A stretch of 42,618 bases of DNA from assembly GCA_044344255.1 (NCBI GenBank), contig JBIJDH010000042.1:1-42618 (forward strand). Direction: 5' to 3'. The translations under genes were made by a program, and so were the position numbers. Under the pieces are notes generated by a model. That model was not told the origin of the DNA, ran no database searches, and was given only the letters and a program-made list of their open reading frames with translations. This document shows positions 2,434-13,685 of this stretch, one piece after another (position 1 is the first letter of the stretch; the number at the start of each line of letters is the position of its first letter). Origin of the DNA: Myxococcota bacterium (GTDB lineage: Bacteria; Myxococcota_A; UBA796; UBA2385).

Positions 2434-3018
2434 TTACTCACGACCATTCGGGTCCCCGTGGCTGTTCGAGAGGAGCCACTCCACCGGAAACCCCGTGATG
2501 CTGACCTCGCCTCCGTCAAGGTGCACCTCGACCTCTGGCGCCTCCGCCATGTCCGACGGACCGTACCGACCGGTCAGGAAATGGACCCTCTGGTTCGTCG
2601 ACCCGCGCCACGGAAGTCCGCTCGCGCGTTCCGCCTCGACGTAGCGCCCGGAGACGACGACATCTGCAACCGCGAGCAGCGCCCGTTGATCAGGATGGAC
2701 GAGCTCGTCTAGTTCGTACCCCGTGAACACGAAGACGGAGAGGCCAGCCGCACGCAGAGGTTCCGCGAGGGCGACCAGCCCTCGGGCCTGCCCGAAAGGC
2801 TCGCCTCCCGTCAGGGTCACGCCCTCGATGCCTTTGGTCGCGAGGATCTCCGCCGCAAGGTCAGCGACGTGCCGAAGGTCACGGCGCTCGAAGGACCAAG
2901 TGGCGGGGTTCCAACAGCCCGGGCACGCGAGCGGGCAGCCCTGAACCCACACGACGAAACGCTCGCCGGGGCCGTTGGCGGCGCTCCGTGGGAGGATGTG
3001 GGCGACGTTCAGCCGCAC
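2434..3018 (-). CDS. Radical SAM / 4Fe-4S single-cluster protein, NrdG/organic-radical-activase-like
   Basis: NGPGERFVVWVQGCPLACPGCWN (CxxxCxxC), GVTLTGGEPF, and GSTNQR, which is NrdG-like. Confidence 0.9.
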   Translation of the reverse strand: MRLNVAHILPRSAANGPGERFVVWVQGCPLACPGCWNPATWSFERRDLRHVADLAAEILATKGIEGVTLTGGEPFGQARGLVALAEPLRAAGLSVFVFTGYELDELVHPDQRALLAVADVVVSGRYVEAERASGLPWRGSTNQRVHFLTGRYGPSDMAEAPEVEVHLDGGEVSITGFPVEWLLSNSHGDPNGRE

Positions 3019-3020
3019 AG

Positions 3021-3515
3021 TCAGTAGGCCCGCTTCACGAGGATCATCCGGATGGTGTCGCCCTCGCGCTTCTCCTCCACGCGGTAGCCCATGTTCTTCG
3101 CCCGCTCGTGGACGGCCTGTCGCTGGGCTTCCACAACGCGCTGCCGCTCCTCCTCCTGGCGCCGCCGTTCCTCCACCGCGAGTCGCTCCTGCTTCACCGT
3201 CCAGTGGGTCTGGTACCGGCTGTTGAGCTGCGTAAGCCAGCCAGTCCCGAACCGGGGATGGTCGTAGCCGCTCACGAAGGCTTGATAGCCGACGACCGAC
3301 GCCAGGAAGCCCACGTCGTTCGAAGCCGCGCCGACGTGTTGGCGCCGGATCACGATGTTGGCGGTCTGGGCGCGCCGGTCTCCGGCGTAGCCCACCAGGT
3401 TCACTGGCGAATCATGGACCTCCACCTTGGATTTGTCAAACCCCAGATCGGCGAGCGCCGACAGCAGGCACTCCTGGTCCGTCATCGGCGTCAACAACGT
3501 CATGTACGCGCTCAT
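3021..3515 (-). CDS. DUF1257 (Ycf35)-like protein with C-terminal coiled coil, paralogue B
   Basis: MSAY..L.TPMTDQECLLSALADLGF...NDVGF...MGYRVEEKREGDTIRMIL matches the DUF1257 pattern. Lies near DUF2997-like and Ycf46-like genes. Confidence 0.75.
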   Translation of the reverse strand: MSAYMTLLTPMTDQECLLSALADLGFDKSKVEVHDSPVNLVGYAGDRRAQTANIVIRRQHVGAASNDVGFLASVVGYQAFVSGYDHPRFGTGWLTQLNSRYQTHWTVKQERLAVEERRRQEEERQRVVEAQRQAVHERAKNMGYRVEEKREGDTIRMILVKRAY

Positions 3516-11800: not shown

Positions 11801-12108
11801 ACGCCGCGGTTCATCACGAAGCCCATTTGCGTGAAGTCGTAGGCTTTTCCGGTTGGCCAGCTCGCCAGCACCACACCCGGAAGACGTCGCGGCACCCGCA
11901 GCAGGCTGTCTGCCGGCTCCAGTCGAATCGACAGGAGGTTGCGCACCCGCTCCCAGGGGAGGTGGTAGCGGGTCTGCCGCTGCTTGGCGGTGTGGATGGC
12001 CTGGCCGATGAAGCGGTTGAAGGGCCGTAGCACGTTGCCCGCCTGGCTCATCAGCGGCGGCGCCACCTTGGGATGGCCGGCGGTCGCGTGGAAGAAGAGC
12101 ACCTTCAC
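8815..12108 (-). CDS. UPF1/DNA2-like superfamily 1 helicase (AAA_11/AAA_12)
   Basis: GTG at 12108 in a GTGA overlap. Motifs EGPPGSGKTT, ASTHVAIDN, IVDEAS, VGDVRQLPP, YQHRMH, TVDRFQGREAD, RLNVAVTRAR. Confidence 0.92.
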   Translation of the reverse strand: MKVLFFHATAGHPKVAPPLMSQAGNVLRPFNRFIGQAIHTAKQRQTRYHLPWERVRNLLSIRLEPADSLLRVPRRLPGVVLASWPTGKAYDFTQMGFVMNRGVPVRFEAATATADGLLVRADVPLLPTDRVFWCGVESGVKQEAAPLPPRQVVDVQGRRLKLLSPPRADADDRSWLLLLEGVLGDCDLVVDGEEVEAEALPVSEGLHRLIDQGGASFDLSGGMLRVEEPPAEGLLRGDNGVRYRWEEVGASGRRGCWVQLLPPETSEADEFLDPRAAFCEGDVSEVLTDKRRRPDTTFKVRKVDQDRYQLLLDRYPPEGSTLFLPVDLRNLYLQKRALRQLTEAPLPHHQGLLRLCEDPQHARWPSVLPTNLPANGWRALTDASRSGTDEQRSFVQKALGSPDLAILEGPPGSGKTTAICEIVQQLVERGERVLLCASTHVAIDNVLERLLDSQSPIDAVRIGKVDKVDEKVQATQLDERVGALVAAWKRQPNRGKYGDAELEEMAERTVIMAANLTCGTTMGIVNHPLFRGRDEDLQVWERPITTMPHWDVLIVDEASKTLIQEFMVPALMARRWIVVGDVRQLPPFADRADIVANLRDLVDENDRPVFPADHQRACLLLYRLLQGRLRQPGMRWLLVERPGVLEWIARELEVEPVADLSVVRVVAKEGRAAGPVQVVTVPQLRAGAAAALRLAAASWVLVGDDLIGEVAGLLPGNLLIAEEVCGAGAPLAEGSVLLTRQAWWMQRAGALERSYQERKFRREDVTTFADAQACESDWLRRNDLAQELAWRLTRLHELRHSQNERERRRLRDDLGRLQPVAVSIEEPIAEIEDIGLPSILEVLQEGIGVDRAKRRSALTAGLKSTLPADFSARFVSLSYQHRMHAEIAAFSREVIYEGQALHDANTIQIRDTKLGWDFGQLRARRMWAHVDGREAGGVNGDEIRAMAAVLRDFIAWAGQKGPPARDLPGVWEVACLCFYVKQERAISDMLREVTGDDRKTRFIVRDAPVEIVCGTVDRFQGREADLVMLSMRNTRRVGFLDSPNRLNVAVTRARQQLVVVGHHSYFTSCGVSELEELARRTPLVEEPEVRRWRRGSR

Positions 12109-13685
12109 GAGCGGCCCCCGGGGATGAATGGGTTGCGGGTGGCTTCCTGACGGAGGCGGGGAGCGGCGGCCTCCGGGCTCTCGGCGGGCAGCGCCTCGGG
12201 GGGCTCCCCGGCCGCGAGGCGCGCGCGGACCTTGGCCCACTGGCGCAGGCTGTCGATCTGATCCCGCATCGTCCGCGACAAGGGGAAGGTCTTGTCGAGC
12301 GCGCGGGCGATGTGCTCGGTGCGAAGCTCGCGGCCCTCGGCGAAGGCGTCGTAGAGCCCCTCGCGCACCGCCTCTTCGAGCTCGGCGCCCGAGTAGCCCA
12401 CCGAGCGCGCCCCCAGGTCTGCGATCGCAAATTCCTTGGGGTCCCTCTTCTTCTTCTTCAGGTGGATGGCAAGGATCTCCTCGCGGACCGCCCGGGTCGG
12501 CAGGTCGACGAAGAAGATCTCGTCGAAGCGCCCCTTGCGCAGCAGCTCGGGCGGAAGCATGTCGATGCGATTGGCGGTGGCGACCACAAAGACCGGGTCC
12601 TTCTTCTCCTGCATCCAGGTCAGCAGCGTGCCCACCACGCGCGCGGTGGTACCACCATCGGTGTGGTCGGAGCTACCCATGCCGGCGAGGCCCTTCTCGA
12701 TCTCGTCGATCCACAGCACGCAGGGGGCCAGGGCCTGAGCCACCTGGAGCGCGGTTCGAATGTTGCCCTCGGACTGGCCGACGATGCCGCCAAAGACCTT
12801 GCCAAGGTCAAAGCGCAGCAGGGGGAACTGCCAGGTCGCCGCGATAGCCTTGGCCAGCAGGCTCTTTCCGCAGCCCTGCACGCCCAACAACAGCACGCCC
12901 TTGGGCGCATCCAAGCCGAATTCGCGGGCGCCGGCTCCAAAGGCCTTCCCTCGGCGATCGAGCCAGACCTTGAGCTGGTCGAGGCCGCCCACGTCGGTGA
13001 GGCGGGCATCGGTCGGGTAGTACTCGAGCACCTCACTCTGCTTGATGATGCGCTCCTTCTCCTGCGCGACGAGCGGGACGGCCCCATGATCGAGGCGCCC
13101 AAGCTCGGCGGCGGCCTTGCCGAAGGCGAGGCGGGCCTCCATCACGGTCAGACCGCGCGCTGCGTCCAAGAGCGCCTCGTCGCCGGAGGCGCGAACCCCG
13201 AGGTTCGCTGCAGCGTCTTCGAGGACCACGCGAAGGTCGTCCACTCCCGGGAGCTCCAGCTCCAGGGTCGGGATCTCCTTCCGCAGGTCGAGCGGAAGTC
13301 CAGGCAGCGGGGTCGACAGCACCACCACCCGGCGCGGAACCTGCGGTAGGCGCGCGATCTCGCGGAGCCAGCGCAGGATCGGGTGGTGCTCGTCGCGGAG
13401 GAAGGGCTGCACGTCCTCCATGAGCCAAACGCCGGGCTCCTCCGAGCCATGGATCTGCTTGAGAAGCTCGAGCGGATCGGTGGCCGAGTCGTCATCGGGG
13501 CAGATCTCCCCTGCCTCGCTGCATCGGAGGATGCCCGTGGACTGGCTCCAGATCCGCATGGGCAGACCGAGGTCGTTGGAGAGGCCGATGACGTGCCCGC
13601 GGACGCGTTCCCACTCGTACGAGGCGATGTGGAGGAGGGACGCGCCCGCGCGGGAGAGGTTCAGAAGGTGGGAGTAGGTGGTCAT
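12105..13685 (-). CDS. Ycf46-like AAA+ ATPase
   Basis: DVGGLDQLK, Walker A GVQGCGKS, Walker B WIDEIEK, ATAN, LPPELLRKGRFDEIFFVDLP, GYSGAELE and PLSRTM..I..LRQWA, with a degenerate N-terminal AAA domain. Confidence 0.93.
   Translation of the reverse strand: MTTYSHLLNLSRAGASLLHIASYEWERVRGHVIGLSNDLGLPMRIWSQSTGILRCSEAGEICPDDDSATDPLELLKQIHGSEEPGVWLMEDVQPFLRDEHHPILRWLREIARLPQVPRRVVVLSTPLPGLPLDLRKEIPTLELELPGVDDLRVVLEDAAANLGVRASGDEALLDAARGLTVMEARLAFGKAAAELGRLDHGAVPLVAQEKERIIKQSEVLEYYPTDARLTDVGGLDQLKVWLDRRGKAFGAGAREFGLDAPKGVLLLGVQGCGKSLLAKAIAATWQFPLLRFDLGKVFGGIVGQSEGNIRTALQVAQALAPCVLWIDEIEKGLAGMGSSDHTDGGTTARVVGTLLTWMQEKKDPVFVVATANRIDMLPPELLRKGRFDEIFFVDLPTRAVREEILAIHLKKKKRDPKEFAIADLGARSVGYSGAELEEAVREGLYDAFAEGRELRTEHIARALDKTFPLSRTMRDQIDSLRQWAKVRARLAAGEPPEALPAESPEAAAPRLRQEATRNPFIPGGRS

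Follow-up and report, generated by a model that had tools for sequence, protein, structure and literature searches.

A two-module operon pairing a UPF1-like helicase core with an AAA+/DUF/radical-SAM cassette: a candidate anti-phage system in Myxococcota and beyond

Contig JBIJDH010000042.1 of the Myxococcota bacterium assembly GCA_044344255.1 carries nine co-oriented genes between positions 2434 and 13685, and they raise two linked questions: do these genes form one system, and is that system immune in function? The first-pass annotation of this DNA took all nine for a single unnamed defense complex that had grown around a known trio of families, namely, a Ycf46-type AAA+ ATPase, DUF1257, and DUF2997. 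Throughout, the window means the whole 42,618-base contig, which belongs to a genome of 8.18 Mb in 83 contigs with about 68% G+C; the genes are labeled G1 to G9 in their 5' to 3' order on the minus strand, on which all of them and their motifs lie, and L-numbers label related loci in other genomes. We propose that the nine genes comprise a seven-gene, two-module operon plus two extra genes and that the operon is a candidate anti-phage system. We hold this reading as a whole at a probability of roughly 0.55, and we place far less confidence than that in any single step of the mechanism set out below.

Gene content and modular make-up

The genes do co-occur in other genomes, as a single system would lead one to expect, although the conserved unit is smaller than the nine genes first supposed. 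Strong matches to G3 were found in 12 of the 400 genomes that made up our phylum sample besides the window's own. In nine of those 12 neighborhoods the order was G1-G2-G3-G4-G6-(one G7/G8)-G9, and the other three were limited to G2, the N-terminal portion of G3, and G4. A wider scan, with one genome per species, gave 50 loci, which fell into 40 with the window's arrangement (type A) and ten with a sister arrangement (type B). All seven genes were present in 29 of the 40 type A loci, and in another ten the contig ends too early, all the genes not seen being those that would fall past the break. The arrangement is more than chance: the seven families stood in identical order in 39 of the 40; in the exception, L065, extra helicase matches came from an adjacent Mokosh system. 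The conserved unit is a set of seven genes encoding an AAA+ ATPase, a UPF1-like helicase, a winged helix-turn-helix (wHTH)/beta/PLD-like protein, a PLD-fold/coiled-coil protein, a DUF2997 protein, a DUF1257 protein, and a radical-SAM enzyme. A tblastn homolog of G5 occupied the same position in L036 only (34% identity; 1 of the 40 other type A loci), and none of those 40 loci had a second DUF1257 copy; both extras are local additions.

By label, the hosts of type A loci are mainly Myxococcota, together with Planctomycetota (Phycisphaerales and Kuenenia), a Streptomyces isolate (Actinomycetota), and Candidatus Sumerlaeia; L051 comes from the cultured Paraliomyxa miuraensis SMH-27-4. G1 and G2 are 82 to 88% identical between records labeled Myxococcota and Planctomycetota, which argues for horizontal spread. 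The G3 family alone comprises 826 clusters at 50% identity with an E value of ≤0.001 (562 at 1e-10) and falls into two length classes, one of which lacks the C-terminal domain; if the operon is anti-phage, it would thus be a widespread multi-gene addition to the defense catalog.

Two type A loci differ in detail. L041 (13844-15050) is the only one without the radical-SAM gene, with 7.3 kb of contig remaining; an unrelated open reading frame (ORF) of 213 amino acids (aa) follows its DUF1257 gene, and its flanks encode an MkoA-like/NERD-UvrD helicase and a large kinase. In L058 (5172-9962), from a Myxococcales metagenome-assembled genome, the matches to G1 and G2 are each in two pieces, which frameshifts or assembly errors may explain.

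The sister form indicates how the seven genes are divided. In each of the ten type B loci, the AAA+/DUF/radical-SAM genes are replaced by genes that come after the helicase trio and encode a vWA protein, a PP2C phosphatase, and a Ser/Thr kinase; this make-up is that of the TerY-P triad, which is not part of the window module. The AAA+/DUF1257/DUF2997 set, for its part, occurs without the helicase trio in L106 to L110 and L161 of the same phylum. In L106 to L110, an AAA+ ATPase that is 42% identical to residues 10 to 492 of G1 is followed by DUF1257, and in L107 DUF2997 comes next. The existence of the Ycf46/DUF1257/DUF2997 trio as a set of its own, which the first-pass annotation had named, is thus borne out by L106 to L110. 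Its view of the window as an expansion of that trio fits less well than a pairing of two exchangeable modules, because in ten loci the helicase trio is joined by a TerY-P-like triad instead of the quartet of AAA+, DUF2997, DUF1257, and radical-SAM genes. One helicase/PLD core wired either to a kinase/phosphatase triad or to an AAA+/radical-SAM set is a natural experiment in the swapping of control or effector modules by defense systems.

Both partial forms have features of their own. The six-gene type B form consists of a UPF1-like helicase, a counterpart of the N-terminal portion of G3 (some 365 aa), a homolog of G4, and the vWA, PP2C, and kinase genes; it occurs in L068, L069, L071 to L077, and L080, and also in L028 to L030, under the labels Latescibacterota, Gammaproteobacteria, and Myxococcota, and it resembles a CnuH-CnuE-TerY-P set without the McrBC genes. 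In L107 (4613-9846), the canonical trio (DUF1257 of 131 aa and DUF2997 of 70 aa) follows a gene for a 694-aa FHA-like coiled-coil protein and precedes a 256-aa ORF without assignment; like L106 and L108 to L110, this locus is from a lower-GC member of the phylum.

Since each module is found without the other (the trio with TerY-P genes in ten loci, and AAA+/DUF1257/DUF2997 alone), and since G9-like enzymes occur in many other contexts, the window could hold two independent systems that happen to adjoin, one a Mokosh-like set of three genes and the other a four-gene AAA+/DUF/radical-SAM unit. The arrangement of the genes speaks against this. The quartet is split around the trio, with G1 upstream and G6 to G9 downstream, in 29 of 29 complete loci, and 4-nucleotide (nt) overlaps run across the module borders G1/G2 and G4/G5/G6. 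Moreover, strong matches to G8 are found almost only alongside G3: they occurred in 10 of the 400 other genomes, 9 of which also had G3. Because the cassette genes flank the helicase trio and overlap it translationally, we regard the set as one operon, and the idea of two unrelated neighbors strikes us as highly improbable.

The junctions themselves are as the first-pass annotation described them. Six are 4-nt start/stop overlaps, all of the form xTGA, with the start codon GTG at 12105-12108 and 4210-4213, ATG at 8815-8818, 7145-7148, and 5169-5172, and TTG at 4004-4007; G7 and G8 are 9 nt apart, and G8 and G9 are 2 nt apart. Contigs of three other lake-water runs, identical to the window, span the G9/G8, G8/G7, G7/G6, G6/G5, and G5/G4 junctions; since these contigs bridge them, an isolated assembly error does not account for the nine-gene form. 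One further contig (run X6) jumps from 3638 to 4759, with only 20 letters on one side of the jump, which is too weak to read.

The helicase core

G2 (8815-12108; 1,097 aa) is a UPF1-like superfamily 1 helicase (AAA_11/AAA_12, about 1e-31) with a Walker A motif, GPPGSGKT, at 10861-10884, and its N-terminal stretch of about 380 aa has no family assignment. Its PADLOC matches are the MkoA models PDLC03920 (1.1e-72) and PDLC03921 (6.1e-45), and its relatives in the PDB are SMUBP-2, UPF1, and DNA2, all of which agrees with the earlier assignment to the RNA-helicase/Mokosh type. It aligns to PDLC03920 from model position 523 on, and stand-alone kinases align to positions 17 to 222 of that model; Pfam gave no Pkinase match on G2.

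For G3 and G4, Pfam (to an E value of 10), PADLOC, and NCBIfam offered no usable family, and their structures were predicted with alignments of relatives. G3 (7145-8818; 557 aa) was modeled by AF2 with a pLDDT of 89.9 and is composed of a winged helix (aa 25 to 90; 8549-8746), a beta-rich middle, and an MIT_C-type PLD-like domain (aa 394 to 553; 7160-7639). The last of these resembles the PLD-like domain of MITD1 (Foldseek E value of 2.6e-5; Z score of 11.5 with a root mean square deviation of 2.8 over 134 aligned residues), so that the PLD-like character first read from the letters is supported by both Foldseek and structural alignment. Weaker matches were to the PLD nucleases SauUSI (Z score of 8.0), Zucchini, BfiI, NgoAVII, and Nuc, and winged-helix matches reached Z scores of 7 to 7.8. 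The motifs CDRY (7529-7540), HDR (7340-7348), and SNS (7283-7291) are kept, as CDRY, His-Asp-Arg, and Ser-Asn-Ser, in all 19 domain-bearing sequences among 23 aligned.

G4 (5169-7148; 659 aa; AF2 pLDDT of 86.2) had been described as a coiled-coil protein, and a long coiled coil of roughly 200 residues is indeed predicted (aa 378 to 575; 5424-6017), but that label is incomplete: a two-lobed PLD fold occupies aa 1 to 370 (6039-7148), and a C-terminal domain that is small and conserved occupies aa 612 to 655 (5184-5315). Foldseek placed the bacterial PLD 7e0m first (2.4e-6), followed by PLD4, PLD3, and F13, and an independent structure search of the ESM Atlas led to PLDc_2 clusters. Since the invariant columns of its alignment contain no His or Lys, the modeled G4 is probably not an enzyme. 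A profile-profile comparison of G3 with G4 gave a match of 6 residues only (E value of 0.25).

This core has two obvious points of comparison among described defense systems. Mokosh type I consists of the helicase MkoA and the PLD nuclease MkoB (Millman et al., bioRxiv 10.1101/2022.05.11.491447). Like it, the operon combines a UPF1-like, COG1112-type helicase (the MkoA match of G2) with PLD-fold proteins encoded alongside, in a defense-island setting. Unlike it, the operon has a helicase without a kinase domain, and G3 and G4, both with PLD folds, have no match to the MkoB HMMs; as for an active HKD site like that of an MkoB nuclease, G3 keeps His-x-Arg...Asn and G4 lacks a conserved His or Lys. 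Mokosh type I, further, is made of two genes and the operon of seven, including an AAA+ ATPase, two DUF proteins, and a radical-SAM enzyme.

The second comparison is with CoCoNuT systems, in which CnuH helicases typically precede CnuE, an elongated wHTH protein with a nuclease, and are often accompanied by TerY-P as well (Bell et al., eLife 2024, PMC11090510). The CnuE nuclease consists of two PLD domains in type III-C (PMC11090510), and TerY-P is cited there (to Gao et al. 2020) as a stand-alone defense system. Going by the description of CoCoNuT types II and III, the resemblance is that a UPF1-like helicase is followed here by a gene for a wHTH protein with a C-terminal nuclease fold (G3, which may be CnuE-like), that coiled coils are present, and that the sister type B form carries the vWA-PP2C-kinase triad. 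The operon differs in that neither the nine proteins nor the other long ORFs of the window include a McrB-like GTPase (CnuB) or McrC-like (CnuC) family, in that it has an additional PLD-fold/coiled-coil gene (G4), and in that the quartet stands where TerY-P would. DUF1257, DUF2997, radical SAM, Ycf46, and NrdG are absent from the text of PMC11090510 and four of its supplementary files. In its core the operon varies the Mokosh/CnuH-CnuE theme, and the AAA+/DUF/radical-SAM cassette is new in a defense setting.

One of the window's two local additions borders this core. G5 (4210-5172; 320 aa) is a lineage-specific coiled-coil protein that shares with the C-terminal half of G4 two short co-linear segments, including G-x-RYLV (BLASTP E values of 9e-5 and 0.011). 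A search of 5.8 billion proteins returned no homolog of G5 but G5 itself, and none was found in L019 to L030. We considered whether the C-terminal tail common to G4 and G5 is a tag that the AAA+ quartet reads; this idea was weakened by the type B homologs of G4, which keep the tail without the quartet.

The AAA+/DUF/radical-SAM cassette

G1 (12105-13685; 526 aa) is a Ycf46-type AAA+ ATPase of the classic clade (PF00004, 1.2e-31) with Walker A (GVQGCGKS; 12861-12884) and Walker B (VLWIDE; 12702-12719) motifs, and the nearest solved chains are those of the Cdc48/p97 D2 domain (4e-55). Its best PADLOC match is IetA (3e-24), and a true pair of the AAA+ protein IetA and the subtilase IetS adjoins the cassette of L070. 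G1 is nevertheless not IetA of an IetAS system, as its score on NF042959 is 79.8 bits against a cut-off of 510 and the nine genes include no subtilase.

The three small genes downstream of the core belong to the DUF families with differing clarity. G6 (4004-4213; 69 aa) matches DUF2997 (PF11211) at 24.4 bits, just over the cut-off of 24.1 (E value of 2.7e-5), and an alignment of 33 sequences, a canonical trio member among them, has invariant Gly14, Gly22, and Cys28, with the loop GFTGDAC at 4130-4150. G7 (3525-4007; 160 aa; TTG start) and G8 (3021-3515; 164 aa) are 57% identical to each other. Both had been labeled DUF1257; neither has a Pfam match of its own even at an E value of 10, and the label holds through their relatives, in that 24 of 35 family members match PF06868 (best match in the aligned family, 2.4e-20), homologs 70 to 89% identical to G8 carry PF06868, and G8 falls in an ESM Atlas cluster named "putative DUF1257" (score of 0.97). 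The lone DUF1257 copy of other loci is nearer G7 in some (L020, L025, and others) and nearer G8 in others, so that the window holds both DUF1257 lineages.

The cassette thus shares with the Ycf46-Ycf35 (DUF1257)-DUF2997 trio an AAA+ ATPase at 42% identity and members of both DUF families. It departs from the canonical trio in several respects: G2 to G4 stand between G1 and the small genes, both in the window and throughout the type A loci; DUF2997 precedes DUF1257, whereas the order in L107 is AAA+, DUF1257, DUF2997; the DUF1257 proteins have an added helical and C-terminal part (160 to 164 aa, compared with 131 aa in L107); the next gene encodes a radical-SAM enzyme; and the distribution is patchy and island-borne.

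That radical-SAM gene, G9 (2434-3018; 194 aa), encodes an NrdG/PflA-like enzyme (Fer4_12, 1.3e-34; Radical_SAM, 9.4e-9) with the motifs CPLACPGC (aa 28 to 35; 2914-2937) and GGEP (aa 71 to 74; 2797-2808); CxxxCxxC and GGEP are invariant in 31 sequences. It resembles NrdG and PflA in these motifs and in its score on the NrdG model, and its family profile leads to the PFL-activating enzyme (2.2e-16). It differs from them in falling below the NrdG equivalog cut-off (TIGR02491, 111.3 against 126.1 bits) and in the lack of a partner: the 95%-complete genome of the window has no match to PF01228 or PF13597, the models for canonical glycyl-radical enzymes, both of which gave matches in control genomes. 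Because an activase-like enzyme is encoded in a genome without a Gly_radical/NrdD match, its substrate is to be sought within the system, where it probably lies.

Outside the operon, full-length relatives of G9 (41 to 50% identity), which form a paralogous family, were found by a profile search in 99 of 401 genomes at 1e-10. Among 20 loci of such relatives (L155 to L174), the DUF2997 and DUF1257 HMMs matched one DUF2997 only, in L161; these loci therefore do not confirm that the quartet joins other partners in this phylum. In 11 of those 20 loci, an AAA+ gene lies 2 to 3 kb from the radical-SAM gene on the same strand; the one such AAA+ protein that was checked, in L157 (e.g., 4524-11487), is FtsH-like, and two genes beside the radical-SAM gene of that locus have no PDB relative.

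What G9 acts on bears on a second explanation of the operon, modification-dependent restriction, in which the DNA or RNA of the host would receive a mark from the radical-SAM enzyme and the small proteins and the helicase/PLD proteins would attack what is unmarked, after the logic of Dpd, Dnd/Ssp, and DISARM. G9 does belong to the Fer4_12/COG0602 group, which includes QueE, and QueE models match it weakly, but its best matches are the protein-radical activases NrdG and PflA. Likewise, the fold matches of G3 include restriction nucleases with a PLD fold (SauUSI, BfiI, and NgoAVII), and restriction-modification-like systems surround the locus, but the seven genes include no conserved transferase, transglycosylase, or methylase, the sister form swaps in a kinase/phosphatase triad with no nucleic-acid modification enzyme, and L041 has no G9 at all. 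We consider restriction of this kind very doubtful.

A more specific form of the anti-phage reading is that the quartet acts as a protein-radical switch of immunity. G9 would modify either the DUF2997 protein, at its invariant Gly...Cys loop, or DUF1257, with a radical or with another radical-SAM mark; the Cdc48-like AAA+ ATPase would remodel the marked protein; and the resulting SAM- and redox-dependent state would arm the helicase/PLD core, so that a phage draining SAM or upsetting the redox balance would trip the switch. In the cyanobacterial DUF2997-Ycf35-Fed7 cluster, the small pair likewise adjoins another iron-sulfur protein (PMC4284462). The link from G9 to the invariant Gly and Cys of DUF2997 and the link to the Fed7 cluster are leads rather than results, and a complex prediction for G8 and G6 with G9 as the partner (score of 0.00; mark of 0.32) gave no answer and is silent on binding. 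Taken as a whole chain, the switch is a long shot. If true, it would be the first immune system built on glycyl-radical-type chemistry and would give the orphan plastid families Ycf46 and Ycf35 their first function.

No named system matched the locus, in keeping with the initial impression: PADLOC 2.0.0 covered only G1 (IetA-like) and G2 (MkoA-like), and NCBIfam 20.0, a collection with names for many anti-phage proteins, had nothing specific for G3 to G8. We found no description of the operon in the literature searched, the main text of PMC13069673 included (the DefenseFinder models and the Millman preprint and PMC13069673 supplements lay outside its scope), and no paper there brings Ycf46 and radical SAM together. 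The operon is real and conserved, and it is apparently undescribed in the databases and papers searched.

Defense setting and proposed function

In the window, the module stands last in a co-directional array of DrmD, DrmMI/type IIG, two unassigned genes, PtuA/PtuB, HEC-03B/NsnB, GmrSD, and a DruE-like helicase. The opposite end of the array (37291-42128) holds an HTH_3 gene and genes for two large serine recombinases, one on each strand; this is probably where a mobile island ends.

A link to defense islands, proposed earlier from this one context, also emerged elsewhere. For 25 further type A loci, flank ORFs were filtered (at least 180 aa, high G+C at third codon positions, and non-overlapping) and compared with PADLOC at 1e-10, and 21 of 92 matched, including three CBASS cyclases, a SAVED effector, BrxL, BrxC/PDC-S02, IetA with IetS, a complete Mokosh I, and a retron-XIII HEAT protein. 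As a control, 14 random 10-kb regions of the window's own genome were passed through the same filter; 10 of 92 ORFs matched, all of them to generic models (kinase, ABC ATPase, methylase, TPR, and sigma-54-type AAA). The difference in raw counts has a Fisher p value of 0.048, and system-specific models matched 17 times in the flanks against 0 in the control, the split into specific and generic models having been made post hoc. In a first set, 29 of 55 type A flank ORFs were sent to PADLOC after those with housekeeping Pfam families had been removed, and 4 of the 29 matched: Cas10 and Cmr1 beside L025, which a type III CRISPR system adjoins, an AriA/HEC-01A-like ATPase beside L024, and, weakly, PbeA beside L020. 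Among type B loci, L028 adjoins HmaB/HmaC and a serine recombinase, and 4 of 46 flank ORFs of eight others matched. The neighborhood of the operon, then, is often defensive.

The most substantial alternative is that the operon is a quality-control (stress) system for nucleic acid or protein that is carried on mobile DNA and is not immune. In such a system, the Ycf46/DUF/radical-SAM proteins would form a protein-remodeling machine, steered by the helicase trio to stalled or aberrant RNA-protein complexes. The kinship of G1 with Cdc48/p97 is in line with this, as are the work of UPF1 relatives in RNA surveillance (Millman preprint), the presence of the AAA+/DUF trio in non-defense settings of the same phylum and, in cyanobacteria, beside the ferredoxin Fed7 (PMC4284462), and the joint retention or loss of ycf35 and ycf46 in red-algal plastids (PMC5940233). 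Many loci, too, have no recognized defense neighbors. A quality-control role sits less easily with the patchy distribution of the operon (the 12 strong G3 matches in 400 other genomes of the phylum), with near-identical sequences under different phylum labels, and with the placement of the window locus within a recombinase-bounded defense island. The neighbors elsewhere include CBASS, BREX, CRISPR, IetAS, and Mokosh, and the cassette can be exchanged for a triad of the TerY-P kind, a stand-alone defense system according to Bell et al. (PMC11090510). On balance, we judge quality control to be unlikely.

We therefore return to the anti-phage reading, which may be pictured as follows. By analogy with Mokosh and with CnuH-CnuE pairs, G2, G3, and G4 would form a core that senses and cuts nucleic acid: the UPF1-like helicase and its two PLD-fold partners would find foreign nucleic acid, G3 would bring a winged helix together with an optional nuclease of the PLD-like type, and G4 would serve as a catalytically dead PLD scaffold with a coiled coil. 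G1, DUF2997, DUF1257, and G9 would form one cassette which, by analogy with the TerY-P triad of the sister form, would take the part of a switch or an effector, gating or delivering the response. Within it, the Cdc48-like AAA+ ATPase might remodel a protein substrate, and the substrate of the radical-SAM enzyme might be a small partner protein or else a nucleotide; the outcome would be phage restriction or abortive infection. Because no obligatory nuclease is evident, the G3 domain being optional and G4 lacking catalytic residues, we lean toward a cassette that is more than a regulator.

Several points weigh against this picture. The PLD-like domain of G3 is missing in 8 of 40 type A and in 10 of 10 type B loci, so that no obligatory nuclease is evident, and G4 is without catalytic residues. 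The radical-SAM gene is absent from L041 despite the 7.3 kb beyond. As to context, PADLOC also matches ordinary genes of this genome, as the control demonstrates; no PADLOC neighbor was found at 10 of the 25 loci of the further set and 4 of the 7 of the first; many loci are kin (L051, L052, and L058, for example, all with CBASS-type neighbors); and the flanks are short. Finally, the canonical trio looks like housekeeping in other bacteria, cyanobacteria, and plastids, and the cassette need therefore not be immune in origin. Whatever its role, the operon offers a testable handle on Ycf46, Ycf35/DUF1257, and DUF2997 and on an activase-like radical-SAM enzyme without a known substrate.

The remaining features of the window lie around the operon. 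The start of G1 is 62 nt past the stop of a 1,978-aa helicase on the same strand (13748-19684; DEAD, Helicase_C, and MZB/DUF1998 by Pfam), a spacing that the first-pass annotation gave correctly; its description of this protein as DISARM-like gives way to a DruE-like assignment, with PADLOC values of 1.9e-105 for DruE against 1.3e-18 for DrmA. No DruH-like partner was recognized beside it, and GmrSD lies upstream of it. We rejected this helicase as a member of the system, as it had no tblastn match in 12 related loci (L019 to L030), and we rejected GmrSD and the downstream ORFs at 1377-2288 and 566-1924 on the same grounds. The minus-strand ORFs past G9 (566-2288; 303 and 452 aa) are without a family match, as are, in Pfam and PADLOC, the array ORFs at 26803-29054 and 21316-22509 (277, 473, and 397 aa). 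Two promoter-like and nine terminator-like sites were detected, near the means of shuffled sequence (0.6 and 5.9), and a hairpin past G9 (2305-2291) is not distinctive. Beyond the window, L065 (208-5093), from Streptomyces sp. 8N616, has a Mokosh type I system directly upstream of its seven-gene cassette; the MkoA matches there are split over three ORFs, with an MkoB-like ORF next, and the MkoA gene may be frameshifted or the ORF calls may be off.

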